Below, piece by piece: positions 2,764-63,289 of a DNA stretch of 63,289 bases (within the stretch, counting starts at the first letter, position 1; every line of letters begins with the position of its first letter). The translations under genes were made by a program, and so were the position numbers. The notes below the pieces were generated by a model. It worked only from the letters and a program-made list of their open reading frames with translations. It did not search any database and was not told the origin of the DNA. The DNA is taken from NCBI GenBank assembly GCA_964504535.1, contig CAZDED010000009.1:1-63289 (forward strand), read 5' to 3'. This DNA is from an uncultured Gammaproteobacteria bacterium. GTDB taxonomy: Bacteria; Patescibacteriota; Microgenomatia; Levybacterales; GWA1-39-11.

Positions 2764-3381
2764 TTATAGCGCGAGAAGAACGATGCCGCCAACAATAGCC
2801 AATAATATTCCTCCTGCAAGAATTACTGTCTGCCCTATTCCACCCGGAGGTTCAATTGTTGGAGTAGCCGTTGGGGGAATAGGAGTTGCAGTTGGTGCAA
2901 CAGAAGGTGTAATTAAAGCATCGACTTGACAGAGCAATTGATCGGAAGTAGCAGCTGCCAAGCCTCCGCAAGCACTCACCGCAACTACATCACATTTGTA
3001 TGTCTTGCCCTGCGTAATTGCAAAAAGAATTTTGGTTGTTGAAGCTGATTGTGACTCGTTATTCTTAAGTATTGTTCCTGATTCTACTTCTGTTACTGTG
3101 ACGTTAAATGACGCAGCATCCGCCTGAGAACTCCAAGAACAGCTTGCTTGTGTAAGATCGCATGAGGTTCCTGTACAGCCAGGGAACTCAACAACAACTC
3201 CACTAGCTGGAGCTGGAGCTGCGCATGCCTGAGCATGAGCCTTAGGTGCGTTAAACAAACCGAAAACTGACAAACTGAAAATAGCAAAAAGGAGAATGAA
3301 ATTTTGTAATGCAAGCCATGCAAAATGCTCTTTTTGCCTGAAAACTTTTTGAGAGGCAAAAATAAATACTTTTTTTATCAT
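2764..3381 (-). CDS. Secreted protein with a C-terminal hydrophobic anchor
   Basis: 205-aa ORF. It has a signal-like N-terminus ending AHAQA, a PT-rich stretch (APTATPIPPTATPTIEPPGG), and a terminal TM segment (ILAGGILLAIVGGIVLLAL) with no charged tail. Confidence 0.6.
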   Translation of the reverse strand: MIKKVFIFASQKVFRQKEHFAWLALQNFILLFAIFSLSVFGLFNAPKAHAQACAAPAPASGVVVEFPGCTGTSCDLTQASCSWSSQADAASFNVTVTEVESGTILKNNESQSASTTKILFAITQGKTYKCDVVAVSACGGLAAATSDQLLCQVDALITPSVAPTATPIPPTATPTIEPPGGIGQTVILAGGILLAIVGGIVLLAL

Positions 3382-49433: not shown

Positions 49434-49907
49434 TTACGTTTCTAGCATTGTTAATATTGCTTCTTTTCTGTCTTTAAGCATGAATCCCATTTTTTTATGT
49501 AATTTCATCGAGTTCGGATTATCGGTATTAATAAGTGCCTCTATTTTTTCAACTTTTTTTTGTTTAGCAATTGAAATTAATTTCTCATAGAGCAATTGCC
49601 CTATGCCTTGGCCCTGAAATTCCGGATCAATTGCAATATGGTTTACATAAATAGAATCTTTAAAGGGAGAGTTTTCATAAGCAAAAAGAAATCCAACAAT
49701 ATTATTCTCAACATAGGCAACCAACGAGAATCCAGAATCCACGTACGCTTTAAAATCTTCTTTTCTCGAAACCAAACATTCCGTTTTTTTCTTGGATGAA
49801 AGATTCTTCCATTTTTTACCTAAATATTGTATTTGAGTCAATTCATCCACTTCATGTACACCCTTATAATCCTCTTGTTGAACGGGCTTGACCTTAATTT
49901 GTTGCAT
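49434..49907 (-). CDS. GNAT-family N-acetyltransferase
   Basis: HIAIDPEFQGQGIGQLLYEKLI is the acetyl-CoA binding motif A. The start is placed at ATG 49907 (MQQIKV...); the track start is 50045. Confidence 0.75.
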   Translation of the reverse strand: MQQIKVKPVQQEDYKGVHEVDELTQIQYLGKKWKNLSSKKKTECLVSRKEDFKAYVDSGFSLVAYVENNIVGFLFAYENSPFKDSIYVNHIAIDPEFQGQGIGQLLYEKLISIAKQKKVEKIEALINTDNPNSMKLHKKMGFMLKDRKEAILTMLET

Positions 49908-49963
49908 AAAGCGATTATACATCAACTCGTTCCGAAACAAGAAATAATTGTTATAATGACTGG

Positions 49964-50713
49964 ATGAACGGAAAGTTTTACGACAAAGTAGCAAGAAAAT
50001 TTGGAAGCTATTCAAGGTCAATTGCAACCCTTGATGAATATTCAACTCAAGATCCTGAGAAAGTGTTTAAGGAAATGTTAATTAAAATAGGCGGAAAAAA
50101 TAAAAATGCTCTTGATATAGGGTGTGCTGACGGTAATTTTACAATAAAGGTATCAAAATATTTTAAAAACATTACGGGAATTGACATATCTAAAGAAATG
50201 TTGAAAGTTGCTCGTAAAAATCAAGAAACGGCAGGAAATCATAATGTAACATTCCTAAAACAGAGTGTTTTTAGGAACAATTTACAGCCTGAATCATTCG
50301 ATATAATTTATAACCGTCGAGGGCCCACAAATTATCCTTCATTTTATTCATTGCTTAAAACAGGTGGTTATTATCTTGAAATCGGAATTGGGGAAAACGA
50401 TTGCAGGAAAATAAAGGAAATTTTTGGAAGAGGCCAAGGTTATAAAAAATGGGGCAGAAGTACTTTACAAAAGGATATAAAAGAGTTAAAAAAAATTGGC
50501 TTTAAGATCGTTATGTCGGAGGACTATTTTTATAATGAATATTACCCTTCTTATAATGAGCTCGACGTTTTTTTACAGGGGGTACCAATTTTTGAAGATT
50601 TTGATTCTTCAAAAGATAAGAAATTTTTACAGCAATATCAAATAAAGTTCCAGGATAAAAAGGGGATTAAATTACCACGTCATAGAATCGTTATTCTTGC
50701 AAAAAAAGTATAA
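49964..50713 (+). CDS. Class I SAM-dependent methyltransferase
   Basis: Motif I: ALDIGCADGNFT. Confidence 0.75.
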   Translation: MNGKFYDKVARKFGSYSRSIATLDEYSTQDPEKVFKEMLIKIGGKNKNALDIGCADGNFTIKVSKYFKNITGIDISKEMLKVARKNQETAGNHNVTFLKQSVFRNNLQPESFDIIYNRRGPTNYPSFYSLLKTGGYYLEIGIGENDCRKIKEIFGRGQGYKKWGRSTLQKDIKELKKIGFKIVMSEDYFYNEYYPSYNELDVFLQGVPIFEDFDSSKDKKFLQQYQIKFQDKKGIKLPRHRIVILAKKV

Positions 50714-50715
50714 AT

Positions 50716-51759
50716 TTATCTATCTTTTCCTCTTAATACAAGCGAAAGAGTTCTTAGCTCTGAATTATTTAACTTATCAAACGGTTTTCCAAGTATATCG
50801 GAGGGGATTCCAAACCCGTCAACAATAGCTCTTTCCCCAACTCTCAAAAGGCGCGCCCTACTGTTTGAACGATCGTCATTTACCTCAATTCTACCAAATT
50901 CGTTGTATTCTCTTGCAGCCTGTTTTAAATCGAAATTTGCGCTTCTTCTTATTACCTTGCGCCTTTCTTTTTTAGTGCGTGTACCTAAATTTTGCTGTTC
51001 AGTAAATTCTGTTAAACCTTCTTTCATACAATTTCTAACAAGCGGGCTTTTATTTGAAGTTAAAAAAAGTTTTCTCAATAAGAAGTCTCTCATATTGGGA
51101 GGCCCTTCCTTAGGGGAAAGACGAATTATAGATGATTCTGTTCTTGGAGGAGGAAGAAAACTGTCTCTTCCTAATTCCATTAGAACATCTATATCAAAGA
51201 ATGATTGAGCAAGGAGTGTTAATTTTCCAAAGCCAAGACTGTCTTCGTTTTGTGCTTGAATTGATTCGGCTAATTTTCTTCCTACAACCATTGTTGCACT
51301 TTCAATATCAAGTTCCGCTATGCGACGCATAAACGGTTCGGTTATGTGATAAGGGATACTGGCAATAATCTGTGTATCATTTTCGTCTTCTTTTGCAACA
51401 AAATCTTGCAATCTAAGTGCAAGAGCATCCCCATAAACCACATGTAAATTTGAATATCGATTTGAAATTTCAGATAAAATAGGTTCATATCTTCTGTCTA
51501 TTTCTATTGCAACAACTTTAGTTGCGTTTTTAGCTAATGCTTCCGTTAATTGTCCGATTCCGGCACCGACTTCAAGAACTTTATTTCCGGGACTTATTGA
51601 ATGGGTTAGCAAATTTATGGCTTTGTCATCAATTAAAAAATGCTGTCCTAGATTTTCATTTGGTACAATGTCTAACGATTCAATACGACCCAGAACTACT
51701 TGTTTCAGCAGCATTGAATTATCCGGCGTCTGTTGGTTTAAGCTTTCTATTCTATTCAT
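50716..51759 (-). CDS. rRNA adenine N6-dimethyltransferase family protein (KsgA/Erm fold) with a C-terminal extension of roughly 90 aa
   Basis: LGQHFLID (QNFL-like), LEVGAGIGQLTE and IIASIPYHITEPF (NIPY-like). At 347 aa it is longer than my recalled 260-290 aa for KsgA/Erm. Confidence 0.75.
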   Translation of the reverse strand: MNRIESLNQQTPDNSMLLKQVVLGRIESLDIVPNENLGQHFLIDDKAINLLTHSISPGNKVLEVGAGIGQLTEALAKNATKVVAIEIDRRYEPILSEISNRYSNLHVVYGDALALRLQDFVAKEDENDTQIIASIPYHITEPFMRRIAELDIESATMVVGRKLAESIQAQNEDSLGFGKLTLLAQSFFDIDVLMELGRDSFLPPPRTESSIIRLSPKEGPPNMRDFLLRKLFLTSNKSPLVRNCMKEGLTEFTEQQNLGTRTKKERRKVIRRSANFDLKQAAREYNEFGRIEVNDDRSNSRARLLRVGERAIVDGFGIPSDILGKPFDKLNNSELRTLSLVLRGKDR

Positions 51760-51904: not shown

Positions 51905-52678
51905 TTAAATTGGTTGAAGATTAATTATGGAATCAGACGCTTCTTCGAGTGCCTTTATCTCATCACTCCATTTTTCATTCATAGCCATCCGATTAAAAAG
52001 TAGATCAAATACCATGTCTAAAATTGGATTATTTTGATGTGTTTTTGAAAAATCCATTATTGATGTTTTATTAAAAGTAAACATTTTGTTTAGAAGATCC
52101 AATTTAATTAAATTACCGTTTTTTAGATAAACAAAAATTTCTCGTCTTGGTTTTCCGTACTCAACATTAACTTGCCATGGAATTTTTCTTTCAAACAGAT
52201 AAAACCATAAGTCTATATCGTGTATCCCCAAATCAAATTTCGGATTGATCGAATAATCTCTTTGTGGTTTCAAACCAAACCGATAGCTTTTAATCTTTTT
52301 AATTTCGTGCGTTTTGATGTTTCTTTTTAAAAACTGGACTATTGGATTATATCTTTCGAGGGTAGATTGATATAAGATTAATTTTCTTTTCTGTGCTAAG
52401 TTTTCAAGTATCTTTGCTTCATTCGATGAAAAACAAAGAGGTTTTTCGCATAGAACATTATAATCATTCATTAACAATTTCTTTACAATTTCATAATGAT
52501 TCTGGATTGGAGTAGAAACAATAACCAAATCAACGGGTTGTCGGTAATCTATAAATTCATCAACATTGCTAAAATATATTCTGTTCATGACCGGATTAAC
52601 GTCCACAATATATTTCCCATTTAATAAACTGTCATAAATTTTCCCCATCTTTCCGAATCCGATAATTGCAATATCCAT
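51905..52678 (-). CDS. Gfo/Idh/MocA-family NAD(P)-dependent oxidoreductase
   Basis: MDIAIIGFGKMGKIY Rossmann N-terminus and the LCEKPL motif. Confidence 0.7.
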   Translation of the reverse strand: MDIAIIGFGKMGKIYDSLLNGKYIVDVNPVMNRIYFSNVDEFIDYRQPVDLVIVSTPIQNHYEIVKKLLMNDYNVLCEKPLCFSSNEAKILENLAQKRKLILYQSTLERYNPIVQFLKRNIKTHEIKKIKSYRFGLKPQRDYSINPKFDLGIHDIDLWFYLFERKIPWQVNVEYGKPRREIFVYLKNGNLIKLDLLNKMFTFNKTSIMDFSKTHQNNPILDMVFDLLFNRMAMNEKWSDEIKALEEASDSIINLQPI

Positions 52679-52679
52679 A

Positions 52680-53735
52680 TCATTTCTCTACAAAATACAA
52701 AAGCTTTTTTGATAATTCTTGCCAAGATAAGTCTTTTGCCAACTTTATATTGCTTTTTTTTGCAATATATTTGAGCTTTAATGCGCTTTTTATTCCCTCC
52801 TTCCAGGAAAATACATTACCGTCAACCATTCGGCCTGTCTTTCCATCCTTTAGGAGCCATTCCATTCTTCCTTTACCCATTACAATTGGTGATCCAATTG
52901 CTAAATATTCACTTATAACTATCGGGCTACAGTCAACTTCAACCGGAAAAACAAATACGTCCGCTATATTCATATAGTCAGGGACTTTTTCTATAGGAAT
53001 CATGCCGCATTTAATGATGTTTTTTCTATTTGGAATTTCCTTTAAAAGAGGGCCATCTCCAACTACGAAAAACACTTGCCTATCGTCTATTGCTTCGCTA
53101 ATTACTTTTAAATTATCGTACCATTTTCCAACTTTCCCACAATACATTATTATCTCTTTTCCCATTAAGTCAACGTTGTATTTTTTCTCAAAATACTTTT
53201 TTAACAATGCTATTTTCGCAGATGAATAAGGATAGAAAAGAGATCTGTCATATCCATTCGGAATAATTATAGTATCTTTCGTTTTTAGACCCCAATTTTT
53301 CATTGCTTCGAGAATTACCGGTGACTGTGCAATAACCTTAGATGCTCTTTGCAAAATATCCAAATAGCTATATCGTAGAAGGTAATACTGTTGATTTACG
53401 CCAAATTCCTTTAAATACATTTCATCATACCAGTCTATACAATCAAATATAATTGGAGTTTTAATTTCCTTGCCGATAATTAGGTTGCTAAGCGGATTGT
53501 CAATCATCAAATAATCAAAACTGCGATTAGAAAGAAACTTTTTTAATCTTTCTCGCTCCTTCGTAACAACATCAATATCTTTCAAAATTTTATGTTTAAA
53601 GAAATCAAATTCGATTTCTTTTGAATACTTTAATAAATATTGCTCCCTTTGCGGGAATCCTACTAGATATGATTTAGCGAAGTGTTGAAGGCTTTGGGTG
53701 TATGTTTTATCTCCAATTTTTAAAACTTTTTTCAT
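52680..53735 (-). CDS. GT-B glycosyltransferase (family 4 / group 1)
   Basis: 351 aa; C-terminal domain ...FFVVGDGPLLKEI...VFVFPVEVDCSPIVISEYLAIGSPIVM (E-x7-E-type region). Confidence 0.7.
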   Translation of the reverse strand: MKKVLKIGDKTYTQSLQHFAKSYLVGFPQREQYLLKYSKEIEFDFFKHKILKDIDVVTKERERLKKFLSNRSFDYLMIDNPLSNLIIGKEIKTPIIFDCIDWYDEMYLKEFGVNQQYYLLRYSYLDILQRASKVIAQSPVILEAMKNWGLKTKDTIIIPNGYDRSLFYPYSSAKIALLKKYFEKKYNVDLMGKEIIMYCGKVGKWYDNLKVISEAIDDRQVFFVVGDGPLLKEIPNRKNIIKCGMIPIEKVPDYMNIADVFVFPVEVDCSPIVISEYLAIGSPIVMGKGRMEWLLKDGKTGRMVDGNVFSWKEGIKSALKLKYIAKKSNIKLAKDLSWQELSKKLLYFVEK

Positions 53736-54727
53736 ATAAAAAATTCTTCAAGAGCCTTTCTTATTGTTGAAATTTCATTCATGGTTAAATTCCATCTGCA
53801 TGGAATTGAAACAATTGAAGAAGTGATATCTTCATACTCATCCCTTACCGAAACGGGAAGCACATCATTATCGTAATAAACTTTAGTTTCAATTCCTTTA
53901 TTTTTCATATGTTTTATAAATTTGTCTCTATTATTCAAAATAATATTAAAAGTTGAAAATATGTGCCTGCTTCCTTCCTGTTCTTCCAAAAAAGGTTGAC
54001 TACCGGGAATTAGGGGAATAAGTTCTTTTGCAATATCTCTTTGAATATCCGTTCTCTTGTCATAATCTTTAAGCTCGTCTAAAAGAAACTCTGCCTTAAC
54101 TTCATCAAATCGAAGATTTAGCGCTACATTTTCGGTTAGTTTTCCGCCGTTTCTACCTGATTCAATAAATACTTTTAATTTTTCGTAATAATCTTTATTA
54201 TCGGTAACAACGGCTCCTCCGTGGCCACAAGTGTGGAGCGTTTTGGTCGGATAAAAACTATAACAACCCAATAATCCAAATGTTCCCACTTTTTTCCTGT
54301 TTAATTCCGCACCAAACGATTGGCATGCATCTTCGATAAGAACACTTTTATTAATTGTTTTAACTAATTCATTTGGTTGACCGTATAGATGTGTTATTGT
54401 ATAAAGTTCATTTTTCGTTGTTGCAAGATGCTTTAAGAAAAGCATGCGTTTGAAATTTATTTCATAATTTAACAAACGAGCGGGTTGGTAAGTTGCCGGA
54501 AAAGTATACGGATCAACGGAAAGCTTGCGATATTTATCCCTCAATACCCAATAGCATGCAAGAAGCGCTGAGGTTCCGCTGTTTGTTAATATCACATATT
54601 TTACACCAAGATATTCTTTTATCTTTTCCTCGAGCTCTTTTATTTTTATTCCATCAATCCAATCTCCGCTATTGTATCTCGTACTTTTATGTTGAGATGC
54701 AAGTTTATAAAGAGGGATTTTAATCAT
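53732..54727 (-). CDS. DegT/DnrJ/EryC1/StrS-family PLP-dependent sugar aminotransferase
   Basis: VILTNSGTSALL, EDACQSFGA and SFYPTKTLHTCGHGGAVVT (PLP lysine context). Confidence 0.8.
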   Translation of the reverse strand: MIKIPLYKLASQHKSTRYNSGDWIDGIKIKELEEKIKEYLGVKYVILTNSGTSALLACYWVLRDKYRKLSVDPYTFPATYQPARLLNYEINFKRMLFLKHLATTKNELYTITHLYGQPNELVKTINKSVLIEDACQSFGAELNRKKVGTFGLLGCYSFYPTKTLHTCGHGGAVVTDNKDYYEKLKVFIESGRNGGKLTENVALNLRFDEVKAEFLLDELKDYDKRTDIQRDIAKELIPLIPGSQPFLEEQEGSRHIFSTFNIILNNRDKFIKHMKNKGIETKVYYDNDVLPVSVRDEYEDITSSIVSIPCRWNLTMNEISTIRKALEEFFI

Positions 54728-54736
54728 ATAACGTAC

Positions 54737-55456
54737 CTACATTATTTCTGAAGCAATTTTTAATGCTTTAGGAGTCAATGGAGAATAATTGTTTATTATG
54801 AAAGCTTCTCCATATTCGCCATTGATGGAAGCGCCCCTAATACTTGCTACGGATCTTAATCTTCTTTCAATCCAATCTTGGTTCATACTATGCTCATCTT
54901 TTACTGATGTGTAAAAATTAAACGCTTCAATTTTTCGATTTATATTTTCTTTCGTAAGTAAGGATACAACCGAATAATCAAATGGTGTGGTCATCTCCAA
55001 ATCAACTTCTCCTTGCAAGAGTAGGGGAGCTCTTGATTTTGTAATGCCCCCCACAACGGCACAGCCGCTTTGAAAATTTGCTTCCGGTACTATCCTTCCC
55101 AGCGTTCTGTGGTCAATATGTTTATCTTGAGAATAGTGAGTGAAAATTACGTCTGGATTAATTTTTCTAATTTCTTTAATTGTTTGCTGTAAAAGAACGC
55201 CCTCATTTTTTCCGACCTCCATGTCATGAAAGGGAAGAAAATTAATTTTATATCCAAGGACATCGGAACTTTTATTTGCTTCTATTAGGGAACGCTTTTT
55301 TCTTTTTGCTTGTGTTTCTTTATAGAAGTAGCCTTGACAATTTTGTGTGTAAAATGTAACGAATACTTCATGCCCCTTTTTGATCAGCTTATCTATAGTT
55401 GCTCCACACATAATAATTTCATCGTCCGGATGCGCAACGAGTATTAATATTTTCAT
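54737..55456 (-). CDS. LmbE/PIG-L-family N-acetylglucosaminyl deacetylase
   Basis: MKILILVAHPDDEII and HIDH metal-binding motifs. Confidence 0.8.
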   Translation of the reverse strand: MKILILVAHPDDEIIMCGATIDKLIKKGHEVFVTFYTQNCQGYFYKETQAKRKKRSLIEANKSSDVLGYKINFLPFHDMEVGKNEGVLLQQTIKEIRKINPDVIFTHYSQDKHIDHRTLGRIVPEANFQSGCAVVGGITKSRAPLLLQGEVDLEMTTPFDYSVVSLLTKENINRKIEAFNFYTSVKDEHSMNQDWIERRLRSVASIRGASINGEYGEAFIINNYSPLTPKALKIASEIM

Positions 55457-56148
55457 ATATTTTCTTTAATCTCTGCGATGTTTTTCTCTCTTTCCTTACA
55501 ATTGGCACATTCATGGCATGAGGATATCTTCCCGTCGTTGTATTGGGCATTCCAACACGAAACCGTTAAATCAAGCATTCCTGCATCGGAAAGTCTTTTT
55601 AACAAGGCTTTTTTCGTGAGAGATCTTATTGGGAGGAACACCTCCATAGGCCGCAAGAAGGATTTTGATAGGATGTCTTCAACTCCTTTGTGGTGAAAAT
55701 AATCGTTATCTCCAAATACAAAATTGTCGTCTAACATATAACCTATTGCTATACCGTCCCCATCGATTTGCTCGGCATATATTCCTGCAATTACCATAAA
55801 AAGAGTATTTCTTCCCGGAACCCAAGCATCGGAATCGTCTTTGGACTCTTCACCAAGTAGTTTACTTCTGGTTAATTTCTTAAGAAGGTCTGTTTCGATA
55901 ACTTGCGTTGGTTGAAATCCAAGTTGGACCGGTACGTTTTCTACCAGTTGTCTTTCTGCCGTAGCAGAAGATTGTCCGTAATCAATAAAAAGAGGGTACA
56001 CATCTTTTCCTTGTTCTTGAAGAATTAATCCGGCTACCGTACTATCAACACCACCCGAATACATTAAAACGACTCTTCCGGTATTTTCCCTCTGAAGACC
56101 TCTCAGCAGATCTTCGTTCATTTTTGTTTTTATAGGTTCTAATTCCAT
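55453..56148 (-). CDS. queC: QueC-family PP-loop ATPase (7-cyano-7-deazaguanine synthase-like, divergent middle region)
   Basis: VLMYSGGVDST PP-loop, FIDYGQ, VPGRNTLF and the 4-Cys zinc motif SCWNAQ...SSCHECANCKER. Confidence 0.75.
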   Translation of the reverse strand: MELEPIKTKMNEDLLRGLQRENTGRVVLMYSGGVDSTVAGLILQEQGKDVYPLFIDYGQSSATAERQLVENVPVQLGFQPTQVIETDLLKKLTRSKLLGEESKDDSDAWVPGRNTLFMVIAGIYAEQIDGDGIAIGYMLDDNFVFGDNDYFHHKGVEDILSKSFLRPMEVFLPIRSLTKKALLKRLSDAGMLDLTVSCWNAQYNDGKISSCHECANCKEREKNIAEIKENI

Positions 56149-56151
56149 TTA

Positions 56152-57168
56152 TTAATTTAGTTGTATTAATGAAAAAAACTTTTCAAGATTTAATTTCTTT
56201 ATTCTCTCAGATGATAAATCATTATAAATACTATAACGTAAATGATGCATTTTAACATAACCTTGCATTTCATTCAAAGCTTTTAATACTATTGGTCTGT
56301 TTAGTCCTTCTAAAACATATTTAATACCAACAGAATCCATGAATGATTTTATTTCTATAATGTCCTGTCCCTGAATAAATGCTGTTAACAAAACGCTAAA
56401 AGCTATCATTTCTCCATGCAAAAATTTTTTTAATTTATTTTCCATAGCATATGTAAAGAAGTGTTCCCCTCCCTCTTCAGGCCTACTATTTCCATAAAAA
56501 TTACATAGCTGGACTTCCATAGCGAGAAACTGCACAAGGTAAATTAACCCCTTTTTTGAAACTTTTCTAATTTCACTTGATTCCGTGAGTAATCCTCTAA
56601 ATATTGATTCTGCCATTAAGGCTACGCTTTCGGAATATTTTTCATCTTCTGCTGCCTTTTTTCTATTGTTTGCATATTTCCAATCAAACAACCCGGTATA
56701 TATTGAAAGAACGTCACCGCAACCGCTTAGATGAAATCTTTTTGGACTTTTTTTAAGTAAATTATAATCTAGCAAAACCAAATCTGCTTTTTTTGATGGG
56801 AAATAGGTGACACACCCCTTATCTCTTAATCCGGTGCAATCAACTAGAAAAGCATCTGTTGAAATAATAGTTGGAACACATATTATTTCAAGGTTCCAAT
56901 TATAGGCGATAAAACGGCCCAAATCACATACTCTTCCACCACCCAATGCATAAATAACCTTTCCTACATGTTTTTCTTTTACTAATTTTTTAGCATATTC
57001 TTTTTCTGCGGATTTAATATAAATTGTTTGAACAATATTTAGATTTTTTATTATATTTTTGCTTTTCTTTAATGATGCAGGGCTTGTTATTAGAATTACG
57101 GGACGGGAATCAAATAGTGTATCTATACTTCCCCATTTTATTTTCGGTAGATTTGAAATATATCTCAT
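56152..57168 (-). CDS. Glycerol-1-phosphate dehydrogenase (AraM/EgsA)-like enzyme of the DHQS/Fe-ADH superfamily
   Basis: YALGGGRVCDLGRFIA (GGGxxxD), VPTIISTDAF and SGCGDVLSIYTGLFDWKYA (GxGDxxxxxxxxxDW). Confidence 0.6.
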   Translation of the reverse strand: MRYISNLPKIKWGSIDTLFDSRPVILITSPASLKKSKNIIKNLNIVQTIYIKSAEKEYAKKLVKEKHVGKVIYALGGGRVCDLGRFIAYNWNLEIICVPTIISTDAFLVDCTGLRDKGCVTYFPSKKADLVLLDYNLLKKSPKRFHLSGCGDVLSIYTGLFDWKYANNRKKAAEDEKYSESVALMAESIFRGLLTESSEIRKVSKKGLIYLVQFLAMEVQLCNFYGNSRPEEGGEHFFTYAMENKLKKFLHGEMIAFSVLLTAFIQGQDIIEIKSFMDSVGIKYVLEGLNRPIVLKALNEMQGYVKMHHLRYSIYNDLSSERIKKLNLEKFFSLIQLN

Positions 57169-57170
57169 GA

Positions 57171-58703
57171 TTAATTAGTAGATAGAATAAAAGGATGGAA
57201 TAGGTCCATGTTTCTGAAAGCCAAATGAAAATATAATTCGGATGCAAATTTATCTATAACTTTTGATGGGTCTGGATATCTTGAAGGGTCGAGTGAATGT
57301 TGAAAATTTGCAATCATTTGTTGCAAGGTTTCTCTTTTAGATTTTTCTCCTTCATTTGTGCGTTTTAAGAAAACCTGCAGGTTGGCATTCATAGTTTCAT
57401 TACCATCTGCAAGCTCAGCTTCTAATTCACCCAATAAAGGCAACATATCGTTAAAACCTGCAGCAAATTCAGGATGAGTAAATGCCTGATACCCATAAAA
57501 GCTAAGCAACTCAGGGGGAACGTCCAATAGCCTTCCTTTTCTCTTAAACTCATGATAAAGAGGAGTATTCGGTTGCATTTCAAGATTGGCAATAATGTAT
57601 CCACTTGAGCCCAGATCCTTAAGAAGCTTTACTTCTTCGCGAATGTTTTTTCTGTTCTGCCAGTCCAATCCGACTATGTATGTTGAAACAACATTAATTC
57701 CAGCATCTTGCAATCGTGCATTAACAGCTTTCAAGTCAACTCCTTCATTTTTTTTATATCCTTTAATTAAAGATTCGACTCCAATATTTACGGTACTGAG
57801 CCTTAACGCACCTTTTGTTAACTCATCTATATCATACTTATCAATTACCTTTGAAGATGTTGTGCTGACCAGTTCACATTGAAATGGCAGATCCCTACAA
57901 AGTCTAAGAACGTCTTTCCACAATTTCACATTGCCCATCCCTTGAGGTTCTGCAATACTTACGGTAAAGGTCTCACTTTCGGGAGCAATCGTGTCATGTG
58001 CAGAAATTATTGCATCTTTAATCTCGTCAGCGGCAAATGGCGCCCTATATTCCTGTCCGTACTGTGCTGTTGAAGGGCAGAAATCACACCCATACATACA
58101 TCCCAAACTACTGACCAAAAGACCATAACTTCCTCTCTTTGTAATTCCGTTAAAACGGGTTTCGGTGTCTGAACGAATTGTTGCGACTTTTAATGGATCA
58201 TTGGTAGGTTGGCCAATTATTTTTCTTAAATCGGTAACCTGATCTCCTCTTAATCTATAGTCAGATAAATTTACCGACTCTTCAAGAAGAGCGCCAACAG
58301 AAGAGGCAATTACCTTAACCTCCGGATGTTTATCTCTTACGAATTGTGCAATTTCTCTAAATGTACTGTATCCGCTTAAATATGTTGAAATAACAATATG
58401 TCCATACCTACCGGTATCAAGCTCTTCCCTTGCTCTTTCAAGAGTTATTGGTTCTGGAATTACCGTATTTGGAAGGTTTATATTTGCGCTCATCCATTCA
58501 CCGGGAGCATTTTGTGGATACCAATCAAATGAAAACGTGTCTTCTCTTCCTTGAGTTTTGGTTTGTTGAATATAATCGGCAAGAAATTGAGAATCATAAT
58601 ATTTATCAAATCCTTTTCTTTGTAATCCTTCTAATTTTTCAGTGGGATTTGTTGTGTTGTATGACGGATCTTGAGCTATAGTAAATAGTACTTCTTTACT
58701 CAT
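57171..58703 (-). CDS. Radical SAM enzyme with a roughly 190-aa N-terminal Rossmann-like (B12-binding-type) domain
   Basis: CxxxCxxC cluster (LGCMYGCDFCPS) after an N-terminal domain (HIVISTYLSGYSTFREIAQFVRDKHPEVKVIASS). The class-B assignment rests on architecture only. Confidence 0.75.
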   Translation of the reverse strand: MSKEVLFTIAQDPSYNTTNPTEKLEGLQRKGFDKYYDSQFLADYIQQTKTQGREDTFSFDWYPQNAPGEWMSANINLPNTVIPEPITLERAREELDTGRYGHIVISTYLSGYSTFREIAQFVRDKHPEVKVIASSVGALLEESVNLSDYRLRGDQVTDLRKIIGQPTNDPLKVATIRSDTETRFNGITKRGSYGLLVSSLGCMYGCDFCPSTAQYGQEYRAPFAADEIKDAIISAHDTIAPESETFTVSIAEPQGMGNVKLWKDVLRLCRDLPFQCELVSTTSSKVIDKYDIDELTKGALRLSTVNIGVESLIKGYKKNEGVDLKAVNARLQDAGINVVSTYIVGLDWQNRKNIREEVKLLKDLGSSGYIIANLEMQPNTPLYHEFKRKGRLLDVPPELLSFYGYQAFTHPEFAAGFNDMLPLLGELEAELADGNETMNANLQVFLKRTNEGEKSKRETLQQMIANFQHSLDPSRYPDPSKVIDKFASELYFHLAFRNMDLFHPFILSTN

Positions 58704-59697
58704 AATTAGTTTTAATACCTCGTACTAAGCTTTTATTTAAAGAGTTTATGAAATTATTAACGGAATCGGGTAGGTGTTCTAGATTATATCCACCCTCAAA
58801 AACCACACAACTTGGAATATTAAGTCCTCCAATTTTATAACCCAAATAGCCATAATCATCTGCGGTAAGTCCTGCTAACGGTGTTCTTCCAGGTGGATGA
58901 TCTTCCTCATGTCCATCGAATCCCGCGCTTACTACTAATACATCTGGATTATAACTATCTATAGTTTTAATTGCTCTTCCAAATTTTTCTTTATATCTAT
59001 CTGTAGAAACACCGATATCAACAGGGATATTAACAATTAAGCCTTTTCCCAGTCCCTCACCAATCTCTTCTGGAAAACCTGTGAATGGAAATGCTATGCT
59101 AGGGTCTGCATGGACAGAAACAAACAGCGCCTCTCCAGAATTAAAAAAAATATCCTGTGTCCCATCTCCATGGTGAATATCAAAATCTAATACTGCAACT
59201 TTAGCACCAGCATTTCGTAGGTTACGAGTAGCTAATGCTGCATTATTAATAAAACAAAAACCATGATAAAAATCATGCCCCGCGTGATGTCCAGGGGGAC
59301 GCGAGAGTGAAAAAACCAATTTAGTTTTCTTTTGAATTAGTAGCTCTGAAGAATGAATACTATTACTTGCAGCTAGAACTGCCTGATCATAGGTACCCTT
59401 TAATATTGGTGTTGAATACGCGGTGTCACTACAAAACTTAGTAAACGCTTCATCCCCCACTTTAAGTAACTCGCTGTATCTTTGAAGCAACTCAATCATT
59501 TCAGGTGAGTGGGTCTCTTTTATTAAGGGGTGTTCATATATATTCGGTGCTTCAACTTTTATGTTAAGCCCGCTCCCAAGAAGAGCATTTTTTACCAATT
59601 CTACCCTTTCAGCAATTTCACATGGATCATCTTTACGCGTTTTGTGTTGCGCATGTTTTTCATCGTAAACTAAAAATACATCATGCTCTATTTCCAT
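58696..59697 (-). CDS. Histone-deacetylase-family amidohydrolase (acetylpolyamine/acetoin-utilisation type)
   Basis: RPPGHHAG, DFDIHHGDGTQDIF and SAGFDGHEEDHP. Confidence 0.85.
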   Translation of the reverse strand: MEIEHDVFLVYDEKHAQHKTRKDDPCEIAERVELVKNALLGSGLNIKVEAPNIYEHPLIKETHSPEMIELLQRYSELLKVGDEAFTKFCSDTAYSTPILKGTYDQAVLAASNSIHSSELLIQKKTKLVFSLSRPPGHHAGHDFYHGFCFINNAALATRNLRNAGAKVAVLDFDIHHGDGTQDIFFNSGEALFVSVHADPSIAFPFTGFPEEIGEGLGKGLIVNIPVDIGVSTDRYKEKFGRAIKTIDSYNPDVLVVSAGFDGHEEDHPPGRTPLAGLTADDYGYLGYKIGGLNIPSCVVFEGGYNLEHLPDSVNNFINSLNKSLVRGIKTNYE

Positions 59698-60887
59698 AAA
59701 TCTGTATTAACTTGTCCTGTTTCAAATAACTTGCCCATTAATTCATTTGATGGAATTGCTCGAGAAGCATTTTCTAGAAAAGTCCTAATATCATCCAAAT
59801 ACATACTTGTTTGTAATCGGGAATCTCGTTGTCGAATTGTCACAGAATCATTTTTTACACCCTCTTCATCTGCTGTAAATACATATGGCACACCGATACC
59901 ATCTGCCTTTCTATATCTACTACCAATAGAGCCCGTTTCTAGAATTGGTGTTCGAATACCGTATTCTTTTAATAGTTCACTTACGAGTATGGACATATTG
60001 TGCAACTCAGGTGTTTTCTTAAGGGGAAAAACCATTCCCTGCACGGGAGCCAATCTTTCGGGTAAATGTAGAACGACTCTATCTCCAATTTTCTCCAATG
60101 CTTGTCCCAATGCTATATAGAAAGGTCTGTCGCTTGAAAAAGAAATCTCAAAAACCTCGGGATATTTACCGTTCACTTCCAGTTTTGTTCCTGTCGCAAG
60201 ACTATGTCTTTTAAAATCGTAGGATGAGCGGTATTGAATTCCGAGCAATTCCATTTCATTTCCGTCCTCGTCCGGTACATATAAACCAAATGCTTTGTTG
60301 GCATAAAATGGTTTATCAGATTCAATCTTTTCTCTAAAATTCATACTACCTTCTTTAATACCAACACTATTCATTAATACATAAGATAAATGCTGTAGGT
60401 AATCGACTGTAGCGGCAACATCTACATCTTTTGTCTGCATAAATATATGTCCTTCGTGTCCTGTATATTGTCTTGTTCTCGTTTGCCATTCAGTTTGTCT
60501 ATCATTAGGCAATACGATTCCCGACTGAAAAACTCTAAATGGTAAATTTCCCCTATAATATTCGAGCAGTCTTCTAAAAAGAGGGTATATGGTTGTAGCG
60601 AGTTCACCTCTACCCATCAGCGCTTGACCGTCTGAAGTTTGTGTTTGGAACATCTCGTCATTAAATTTCTGTAAATGTCCACTTGCTTCCCAGGCTTTTC
60701 GGGGATAAAGGACCGGTGTCTCAATCTCATCAAAGCCTTCATCGATAAAAACTTCCCTGAATTGTTGTTCCATATTGGTTTTAAGGGCTTTACCCATAGG
60801 ACCATATGTCATAAAACCAGCCACGCCGTATGGACTGTGCTCCGGCCCCCATAAAAATCCGTTTGAAACTAAATGTTCTTTTAACAT
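59688..60887 (-). CDS. Class II glycyl-tRNA-synthetase-like paralogue (catalytic core plus anticodon-binding-like domain), divergent motif 2
   Basis: GlyRS-type N-terminus (GFLWGPEHSPYGVAGFMTYGPMGKALKTNMEQQF), motif-3-like PEVFEISFSSDRPFY, and a class IIa C-terminal domain (APVQGMVFPL...GSIGSRYRKADGIGVPYVFTAD...VTIRQRDS). Confidence 0.75.
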   Translation of the reverse strand: MLKEHLVSNGFLWGPEHSPYGVAGFMTYGPMGKALKTNMEQQFREVFIDEGFDEIETPVLYPRKAWEASGHLQKFNDEMFQTQTSDGQALMGRGELATTIYPLFRRLLEYYRGNLPFRVFQSGIVLPNDRQTEWQTRTRQYTGHEGHIFMQTKDVDVAATVDYLQHLSYVLMNSVGIKEGSMNFREKIESDKPFYANKAFGLYVPDEDGNEMELLGIQYRSSYDFKRHSLATGTKLEVNGKYPEVFEISFSSDRPFYIALGQALEKIGDRVVLHLPERLAPVQGMVFPLKKTPELHNMSILVSELLKEYGIRTPILETGSIGSRYRKADGIGVPYVFTADEEGVKNDSVTIRQRDSRLQTSMYLDDIRTFLENASRAIPSNELMGKLFETGQVNTDLWK

Positions 60888-61992: not shown

Positions 61993-62778
61993 TTAATTGT
62001 GTTTAACATCGTCAATACTTGTATATCGAGCGTAGGCATTATGGTTATGTATTGATTCGAAACTTTCACACTCTACAGTGAACGAAAGAATGTTTTTGTT
62101 CTTTTTTATCGAAAGAGCAGTATCTCTAACCGCATCTTCAACAAATTTAGGATTTTCATAGGATTTTTCGGTTACATATTTTTCATCAGGCCTTTTTAGT
62201 ACAGGGTATATCTCACAACTACCGTTTTTTTCAATCGTTTTTATTAATTCATCTATCAATAAGTCCCCTTTTAGAAGTGCGTCTACCGTTATAATCGATC
62301 TTTGGTTGTGAGCATTAAATTTACTTATTGCTTTACTGCACGGGCACAAAAGCATAACAGGAACTTTCACTATTATCCTTTGTTCCGAATCTCCGGAATT
62401 AACCCTTGAATATATTTTGCATTCATAATCAACGAAACTACTTTTTCTGGAAACAGGAGCCTCTTTTTTCAGGAAATATATAAAAGAAATTTCAAGATAA
62501 GCATTGTCTGCCTGTAATTCCTTTTTTGCTTCACTCGCTATTGATTTCAATTTTTCAAACGTTAGAATATTTTCCCGATTCCTAAAAAGTATTTCTACAA
62601 ACCTACTCATATGATGTCCTTTTAATGAATGGCGTAAGTCTGCAAAGAAATTAACAGATGCCGTAACCTGTTGGGTATCTTTTTTGTGGGGGATTAACAA
62701 AGGAAGCGATATCTTGGTAATACCAACCCTATCTAGTCGAAGTCCTCTTTTATCTTTTAGTTTTTGTATGTCTTTCAT
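61993..62778 (-). CDS. folE2: GTP cyclohydrolase I type 2 (FolE2/MptA family)
   Basis: 261 aa; GHHMSRF, LLCPCSK and NHNAYA motifs. Confidence 0.85.
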   Translation of the reverse strand: MKDIQKLKDKRGLRLDRVGITKISLPLLIPHKKDTQQVTASVNFFADLRHSLKGHHMSRFVEILFRNRENILTFEKLKSIASEAKKELQADNAYLEISFIYFLKKEAPVSRKSSFVDYECKIYSRVNSGDSEQRIIVKVPVMLLCPCSKAISKFNAHNQRSIITVDALLKGDLLIDELIKTIEKNGSCEIYPVLKRPDEKYVTEKSYENPKFVEDAVRDTALSIKKNKNILSFTVECESFESIHNHNAYARYTSIDDVKHN

Positions 62779-62781
62779 GCT

Positions 62782-62808
62782 ATAAAAAAACGAGCGTACC
62801 CGCTCGTT
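62782..62808 (-). terminator. Intrinsic terminator/attenuator inside the folE2 leader (AACGAGCG-ggta-CGCTCGTT followed by TTTTT)
   Basis: The minus strand reads AGAACGAGCGGGTACGCTCGTTTTTTTATAGCATG. The 8-bp stem and U-tract end 6 nt before the folE2 ATG. Confidence 0.6.
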
Positions 62809-62899
62809 CTATATAACTATATATCAATATTGGTAGGTATAACCTAAATGCGGGTCGCCCTTTCCACTATTGTTTGCAACTTGAATCTAATTGAACTCG

Positions 62900-62927
62900 A
62901 TTATACCATAATAATTAGAAAAAGCAA
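62900..62927 (-). promoter_or_regulatory. Strong sigma-70-type promoter for the 12-gene operon (TTGCTT, 16-nt spacer, TGgTATAAT)
   Basis: The minus strand reads TTGCTTTTTCTAATTATTATGGTATAAT. The predicted leader is about 115 nt. Confidence 0.55.
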
Positions 62928-62965
62928 AAAATCAATTCTAAAAGAGATTTTACCTCAAATAGTGC

Positions 62966-62994
62966 TTGACTTCACTGAGACGGTCTGATATATA
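62966..62994 (+). promoter_or_regulatory. Sigma-70-type promoter (TTGACT, 17-nt spacer, TATATA) facing the pilin gene
   Basis: Direct reading; it is divergent from the operon promoter. Confidence 0.5.
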
Positions 62995-63027
62995 TTGATA
63001 CAATAATTTAATTGTTCGGTTTTATGG

Positions 63028-63053
63028 AAACTGCTCTCCGGGGCAGTTTTTTT
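63028..63053 (+). terminator. Intrinsic terminator (AAACTGC-tctccggg-GCAGTTT followed by TTTT) between that promoter and the pilin gene
   Basis: A perfect 7-bp stem followed by a T-run, about 30 nt downstream of the -10 box and 34 nt upstream of the pilin ATG. Confidence 0.55.
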
Positions 63054-63086
63054 GTATTTACCGCTTTTTAGAAAGGGGGTGAAGGC

Positions 63087-63289
63087 ATGAAAAAACTAAT
63101 AACATTACAATCAATTATTTTAACTTCATTAATAGTCGCTACTCCTGTGTTTGCACAAGCTGCAGATGTTACAAAAGTCCAAAGCTTTATAGAAAATATT
63201 ATCCAGATTCTAACGACCATGGCAGGATTACTAGCGTCCGGCTTTTTTGTATGGGGTGGAGTCAGATACATAACATCAAGTGGAAATCC
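63087..63289 (+). CDS. VirB2/TrbC-like type IV secretion pilin (partial; runs off the window)
   Basis: Hand translation gives MKKLITLQSIILTSLIVATPVFAQAADVTKVQSFIENIIQILTTMAGLLASGFFVWGGVRYITSSGN... It has a signal peptide ending AQA and a hydrophobic helix followed by GG-x-x-Y-I-T-S-x-GN, typical of TrbC/VirB2 pilins. The SD is AAAGGGGGTGAAGG. Confidence 0.55.
   Translation, partial: MKKLITLQSIILTSLIVATPVFAQAADVTKVQSFIENIIQILTTMAGLLASGFFVWGGVRYITSSGN

Follow-up and report, generated by a model that had tools for sequence, protein, structure and literature searches.

A candidate riboswitch-like transcription attenuator in front of a folE2-headed 7-deazaguanine operon

What controls the 7-deazaguanine operon that begins with folE2 in this bacterium, and does the leader in front of it belong to any known class of regulatory RNA? 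The DNA analyzed here (63,289 nts, hereafter the window) is the whole of contig C9 of a 100%-complete genome of 1.27 Mb; all relatives have genomes of 0.6-1.8 Mb, and the closest named FolE2 homologs, within a graded series returned by protein search, belong to Patescibacteria, which together suggest a Patescibacteria-like organism. folE2 is the first gene of a tightly packed minus-strand operon (Table 1), in which folE2, queD, queE and queC are present and queF is absent, and the neighbor 5' of its leader is a divergent plus-strand gene for a TrbC/VirB2-like (T4SS) pilin. A sequence-only reading of this region had cautiously described the leader as a riboswitch-like transcription attenuator. 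This description is supported by the conservation of the leader, by promoters of its own and by the lack of an Rfam match, and on sequence comparison the leader appears to be a real, selected attenuator that matches no known family. It is quite probably a cis-acting regulatory RNA; that it is a metabolite-sensing riboswitch, the reading preferred here, is given a probability of roughly 0.45.

Table 1. Coordinates of the folE2 leader, its operon and neighboring features in the window
Feature	Position	Strand	Basis or remark
-35-like hexamer TTGCTT	62922-62927	-	Read from sequence
Extended -10 element TGgTATAAT	62900-62908	-	Read from sequence; 16-nt spacer to -35
Conserved core, putative sensor, 48 nt: CAAUAGUGGAAAGGGCGACCCGCAUUUAGGUUAUACCUACCAAUAUUG	62825-62872	-	Comparison among carriers
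Mini-ORF (A/G)UG GAA AGG GCG ACC CGC AUU UAG, MERATRI	62844-62867	-	Inside the conserved core
Switching segment GGGCGACCCGC	62850-62860	-	Predicted to pair inside the core or with the terminator loop and 3' arm
A/U-rich linker	62809-62824	-	Less conserved; 13-15/16 identical between loci
Terminator hairpin AACGAGCG-GGTA-CGCTCGTT (RNA: AACGAGCG-GGUA-CGCUCGUU)	62789-62808	-	Terminator scan
U7 tract of the terminator	62784-62790	-	5 nt before the folE2 ATG at 62778
Start region of folE2, UUUUUUUAUAGCAUG	62776-62792	-	No Shine-Dalgarno sequence
folE2 (GTP cyclohydrolase IB)	61993-62778	-	PF02649, E = 2.6e-82, profile covered from position 1
Operon order, part 1: folE2, queD, queE, class-II aaRS-like, HDAC-like, radical-SAM		-	
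Operon order, part 2: DHQS/Fe-ADH-like, queC, PIG-L deacetylase, DegT aminotransferase, GT4 glycosyltransferase, Gfo/Idh/MocA oxidoreductase		-	
Tailoring genes	51905-60887	-	
KsgA/Erm-type methyltransferase gene	50716-51759		After the tailoring genes
GNAT gene	49434-50045		After the tailoring genes
Terminator-like hairpin GGAAACTGCTCTCCGGGGCAGTTTTT	63026-63051	+	Divergent intergenic region, just 5' of the pilin start at 63087
Start region of the pilin gene, GGGGGTGAAGGCATG	63070-63089	+	Strong Shine-Dalgarno sequence

The promoter, the leader, the sequences of its small hairpins and the terminator proposed by the earlier reading were all recovered on the minus strand where it had put them. 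With a predicted transcription start near 62892, the leader would be ~114 nts long. The folE2 promoter was not listed by a consensus promoter scan because its -35 hexamer matches at only 3 of 6 positions, and promoter scanning of the leader listed no internal promoter. Besides the window, the core of this leader is carried by L083/L084, L085, L086, L126 and L113, whose FolE2 proteins are at least 82% identical, L113 being identical to the window; the protein variants P0128, P0129 and P0132 (~97% identical) were left out of the carrier comparison. The pattern TTGC..TGGTAnAAT is kept in L083, L085 and L126, and a different promoter (TTGACC-17-TATAGT) occupies the equivalent place in L086. The terminator hairpin has a folding energy of -14.2 kcal/mol (z = -5.2; 0 of 200 shuffles were as stable), and the corresponding value for the entire leader is -32.5 kcal/mol (z = -4.0). 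This hairpin is conserved in L083, L085, L113 and L126 and identical in L085 and L126; L083 shows one G-C to G-U change and one loop change, and the U tract of L126 is U9. It is a promoter-proximal, G+C-rich hairpin followed by a U tract and placed 5' of the start codon, and it does not end an upstream gene. The latter possibility, a terminator serving a minus-strand transcript that arrives from upstream, had been raised in the earlier reading and is ruled out, since the upstream (pilin) gene is divergent and the leaders of L126 and L086 have their own promoters in unrelated contexts. Also ruled out was a plus-strand ORF of 46 aa (62848-62988) antisense to the leader, which is cut short in L085 and lacks a start codon in L086.

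The core is 45-48/48 identical across the six distinct contigs carrying it, and the four-fold degenerate sites of the adjacent folE2 genes are 0.43-0.79 identical. In pairwise comparisons with the window, L083, L085 and L086 match at 47, 46 and 47 of the 48 core positions, and their folE2 four-fold sites are 0.79, 0.58 and 0.45 identical (binomial P = 1.5e-4, 3.7e-9 and 1.8e-15, respectively). The 57 nts 5' of the core, which comprise the promoter and the 5' leader, are 78%, 78% and 54% identical in the same three loci. Because the identity of the core lies far above that of the folE2 four-fold sites, the core is apparently under strong purifying selection, stronger than that acting on the protein. 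Conservation of the leader in homologous loci far beyond neutral expectation, on which the earlier proposal had hinged, thus holds, and the putative sensor is conserved beyond neutral expectation as in a riboswitch, here on six distinct contigs only. All six distinct core sequences come from folE2 genes that are at least 82% identical at the protein level, which counts against the riboswitch reading. More distant folE2 loci (L087-L092 and L116-L119, ~65-78% protein identity) have short, unstructured leaders without the core.

Variation in the core consists of G/A at position 6, a G-to-U substitution at position 8 (L126), and C-to-U substitutions at positions 20 (L085) and 23 (L086). This pattern bears on leader-peptide attenuation, in which the 7-codon mini-ORF inside the core would be translated and the position of the ribosome would select the fold. 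Three of the four substitutions are silent for the mini-ORF (GUG/AUG start, ACC to ACU, CGC to CGU), and its lack of a ribosome-binding site, a point against translation, is matched by folE2 itself, which likewise starts without a Shine-Dalgarno sequence. Nevertheless, such a mechanism is improbable: the phase pattern of the four substitutions is not significant (~0.1, hand count), the L126 change turns the GUG start into GUU and leaves the mini-ORF intact in five of six variants, and invariance is just as high in the 19 core nts that follow the stop codon, which a peptide cannot explain. Moreover, as read by eye from the sequence, a ribosome on the mini-ORF would cover the antiterminator segment, and there is no trp-like 2:3 pairing.

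The minimum-free-energy fold predicted for the core is one irregular 48-nt hairpin (-11.5 kcal/mol, z = -1.8) with the stems CAAUA/UAUUG, UGG/CCA, AGG/CCU and GACC/GGUU and an 8-nt apical loop. It is only marginally better than shuffled sequences (10 of 200), which also counts against the riboswitch reading. The earlier reading had drawn two small hairpins in this region, GGGCGACCCGC and TAGGTtatACCTA; both sequences are present, but they do not form the thermodynamically preferred fold of the core, as the two hairpins combined with the same outer helix in a three-way junction are ~3 kcal/mol worse than the irregular hairpin. The three-hairpin drawing is best regarded as one of at least two modeled folds that are compatible with the data. 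Both folds accommodate a substitution in a 1x1 internal loop, a G-C to G-U change and a loop substitution, and the L126 change breaks one predicted pair unless the register shifts. Variation among the carriers is low, and 0 of 23 predicted pairs changed on both sides, with two one-sided G-C to G-U changes and one cell unpaired, so that covariation favors neither fold.

The complementarity between ACCCGC of the core (62850-62855) and GCGGGT of the terminator (62798-62803), noted in the earlier reading, is genuine and forms the nucleus of a longer helix than had been claimed. It extends to GGGCG:CGCUC and further, with weaker pairs reaching into the U tract, so that GGGCGACCCGC pairs with GCGGGU-(A)-CGCUC, that is, with the end of the terminator 5' arm, the loop and the 3' arm. 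Of 2000 dinucleotide-shuffled versions of the core, 5 paired as strongly as the predicted core-terminator duplex (-21.9 kcal/mol), as did 5 of the 1703 natural 48-nt tiles taken from the window (p ~0.003, two controls), and the duplex is kept in L083 (-19.8 kcal/mol) and L085 (-18.9 kcal/mol). The substitutions at paired positions, a C-to-U in the terminator 3' arm of L083 and a C-to-U in the core of L085, both lie opposite G and keep pairing in both alternative folds. When enforced on the whole leader, the alternative fold reaches -25.3 kcal/mol against -32.5 kcal/mol for the minimum-free-energy fold, and the complete RNA is predicted to favor core plus terminator by ~6-10 kcal/mol. For the nascent RNA, at the point where the terminator loop or early 3' arm has been made, predictions for the window, L083 and L085 place the two conformers within 0.7-2.2 kcal/mol of each other. 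The two mutually exclusive folds proposed earlier are therefore computed to be within ~2 kcal/mol at the decision point, and computationally the core pairing sequesters a terminator arm in the manner of an attenuator. Such a balance is what would be expected of a switch under kinetic control, since binding to the core worth a few kcal/mol would be enough to tip it.

The same calculations bear on whether the leader is regulated at all. It could instead be a structural leader, acting as a 5' stabilizer or processing element, or the ~105-nt terminated transcript could be an sRNA acting in trans, and the terminator would then set a constitutive level of read-through. The absence of covarying pairs (0/23) and the fact that the full RNA is clearly most stable with core and terminator both formed are consistent with such a passive role. 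We consider it quite unlikely, because neither a core-terminator complementarity of this rarity nor folds balanced at the decision point would be expected of a passive leader, and 48 nts at 94-100% identity exceed the needs of a generic stabilizing hairpin. As for an sRNA, the genome contains no second copy and no obvious target.

Under the riboswitch reading, transcription would start near 62892 and the core would fold first. If the core were locked, in the model by a ligand, the hairpin followed by U7 would form and RNA polymerase would terminate 5 nts before the ATG. If the core were not locked, the nascent GCGGGU of the terminator would invade it and pair with ACCCGC, and the invading helix would extend (CGCUC:GGGCG) and capture the 3' arm of the terminator, resulting in read-through. 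At odds just short of even, the core would then be the sensor (aptamer) of a new, very rare and narrow riboswitch class that turns folE2-queD-queE OFF. Such a leader would share its promoter, aptamer, intrinsic terminator and exclusive antiterminator built from part of the aptamer with classical OFF riboswitches such as guanine xpt and SAM-I. However, in the usual arrangement of the xpt and SAM-I type, the 3' strand of the aptamer pairs with the 5' arm of the terminator, whereas the antiterminator predicted here is built from the 5'/central strand of the sensor, with the terminator loop and 3' arm as its partners.

Beyond the promoter, the flanks of the carriers are unrelated, with a pilin gene in the window, an IS in L083, a GH1 gene in L085, an integrase gene in L086 and an OB-fold gene in L126, and folE2-queD-queE are the only genes common to all carrier loci. 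The unit of leader, folE2, queD and queE thus appears, from these comparisons, to move as a module, and an element that travels with its operon into unrelated contexts favors a self-contained cis sensor. Another reading is a DNA-level role, in which the nested inverted repeats would be an operator or a recombination site of the mobile module; the core does contain inverted repeats, and integrase and transposase genes adjoin the leader in L086 and L083. This is very improbable, since the element is invariably placed, in the sense orientation, after a promoter and before the start codon, the breakpoints of the module are 5' of the promoter and not at the core, and 48 invariant nts with nested arms and complementarity to the terminator point to RNA folding.

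L086 suggests a second way in which the putative sensor could be coupled to termination. In this locus the linker and the terminator hairpin are absent, and the closing helix of the core, extended to GACAAUA/UAUUGUU, directly abuts U8. If the contig is correct, the folded L086 core would itself be the terminator hairpin, and its position next to U8 predicts termination (OFF) when the core is folded or locked; L086 is a single metagenomic contig, in which the hairpin may simply have been deleted. It is typical of riboswitch families that one sensor occurs with two expression platforms. A precedent for a terminator-embedded aptamer is the HMP-PP riboswitch (thiS motif; PMC6478431), which is rare and small like the element here and, as the L086 variant would, unites aptamer and terminator in one structure. 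It differs in that its sequence and ligand pathway are unrelated, and in that the window and three other variants have a separate terminator hairpin 16 nts 3' of the core. As a side observation, the L086 leader (3005-3069), which consists of the core followed by T8 and the ATG, adjoins a divergent tyrosine integrase gene and a Y1 transposase gene.

The element is very rare. A covariance model of the core (R1) scores 87.7 bits for the window, the only copy in its own genome, and found no credible match in 150 relatives, 150 class-level genomes and 150 phylum-level genomes (overlapping samples). Applied to 93 folE2 loci from many phyla, it matched only the known members, and the regions 5' of 80 folE2 loci in other phyla gave nothing. 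Among the outsiders, L128 scored highest (33.5 bits) and was rejected as it lies antisense inside a 418-aa transporter ORF, and L123, L124, L125 and L127 (19.6-26 bits) were rejected as chance matches because of their low scores and because no folE2 or deazaguanine gene is tied to them. A degenerate pattern scan of JGI metagenome contigs gave 23 matches, 22 by chance and one true (L113); the scan of viral contigs gave 0 matches, and blastn searches against plasmid and phage collections found nothing.

An alternative is that the core binds a trans-acting RNA-binding protein which sets termination in the manner of PyrR, TRAP, LicT or HutP. Such a protein-dependent attenuator would account for the same RNA evidence as a riboswitch, namely the conserved core, the terminator and the competing pairing, and near-total invariance that includes the loops is also typical of protein-binding sites. 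It is nevertheless unlikely. The element moves with only folE2-queD-queE, none of which encodes a known RNA-binding regulator, and no regulator gene is conserved beside the leader. Moreover, folE2 is rare in this lineage: searching 460 other genomes of the phylum did not recover it (0/60 relatives and 0/400 phylum genomes), which makes a dedicated host regulator unlikely.

The earlier reading could not assign the leader to preQ1-I or to any other class, and a cmscan search with Rfam 15 at E <= 10, of both 1790 nt and 131 nt, agrees in giving no family match. The models without a match include preQ1-I/II/III, THF, folE/THF-II, purine, ZTP, PRPP and guanidine; the sole listings, among them the L20 leader, OmrA-B and Bp1_162, are terminator-driven and align only to the terminator. 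In addition, no such element is described in the titles and abstracts listed by library searches on riboswitches in connection with folE2, Patescibacteria or 7-deazaguanine. Among the closest known systems are the preQ1 riboswitches (RF00522, RF01054 and RF02680), which, like the leader here, are cis-regulatory 5' leaders before genes for 7-deazaguanine or queuosine precursors; many preQ1-I members are OFF switches that act by transcription termination, as in the model proposed here. Unlike them, the core here lacks an H-type pseudoknot with an A-rich tail and is predicted to form a 48-nt irregular hairpin or a three-way junction. Preference for preQ1 is also not indicated by the gene content: QueF (PF14489) was not found in the 100%-complete genome, as queF was not in the operon, so preQ1 would not come from the standard QueF route, in keeping with the lack of a preQ1 aptamer. 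A tRNA-guanine transglycosylase (TGT) is encoded on contig C1 (117351-118448, +; PF01702, E = 2e-130), and this match contains one TAA.

The THF-II (folE motif, RF03111) and THF-I (RF01831) riboswitches are likewise small hairpin-type RNAs 5' of a GTP cyclohydrolase I gene. The folE motif acts on folE at the ribosome-binding site and occurs mainly in Alphaproteobacteria. In contrast to THF-II, the gene here is folE2 at the head of a queD-queE deazaguanine operon, control is predicted to be exerted by an intrinsic terminator, and neither RF01831 nor RF03111 matches at E <= 10.

As folE2-queD-queE are the only genes shared by all carriers, the ligand would be a 7-deazaguanine-type product, for example 7-carboxy-7-deazaguanine (CDG), preQ0 or a derivative. 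More weakly than for the sensor role of the core, these shared genes thus point to a small-molecule effector related to their part of the pathway (GTP to CPH4 to CDG, then preQ0). Overall, the element may represent a new riboswitch class on a mobile 7-deazaguanine module of ultrasmall Patescibacteria-like bacteria, which senses a CDG/preQ0-type compound rather than preQ1 and uses two platforms, one with a separate terminator and an unusual antiterminator that takes up the loop and 3' arm, the other terminator-embedded; we put forward this full version tentatively, with the odds somewhat against it.

Gene regulation in candidate-phyla-radiation bacteria is, to our knowledge, almost unexplored, and we know of no natural riboswitch described as specific to these bacteria, so that the element, if confirmed as one, would be the first. 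Should the core bind a metabolite, 7-deazaguanine sensing by RNA would have a fourth solution, structurally unrelated to the others, and the ligand would offer a chemical way into a deazaguanine/amino-sugar natural-product pathway that is as yet uncharacterised. Being compact and self-contained, a 48-nt switch might also be used for inducible control; a review on Patescibacteria genetics (PMC11665869) regards riboswitches as promising for inducible expression there, with development still needed. If no metabolite is bound, the leader would still be a clean example of a strongly selected attenuator travelling with a mobile operon.

Several minor observations concern translation and gene content. 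A Shine-Dalgarno sequence is absent from the folE2 homologs L087, L089-L091 and L116-L119 as well. Pairing of the extended terminator stem in the minimum-free-energy fold reaches position -1 of the folE2 AUG, so the terminator hairpin might act on folE2 translation too. The tailoring genes of the window combine a GT4 glycosyltransferase, a PIG-L/LmbE deacetylase and an aaRS-like ligase, reminiscent of mycothiol-like logic, with DHQS-like, DegT, Gfo/Idh/MocA and radical-SAM genes of aminocyclitol-like logic, plus queC. Downstream tailoring genes differ among the carriers, with aaRS-like and HDAC genes in the window and L126 and a SAM methyltransferase gene in L085 and L086. GlyRS-like and HDAC-like genes are again found 3' of queE in L126; at the same place in L085 (4882-5541) and L086 (4899-5588), a class-I SAM methyltransferase gene replaces the aaRS-like/HDAC/radical-SAM set. 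L086 also has a GNAT gene, and queC was not found within the 3 kb fetched for L085 and L086. The gene content of these two loci suggests that the folE2-queD-queE module feeds different tailoring chemistries.
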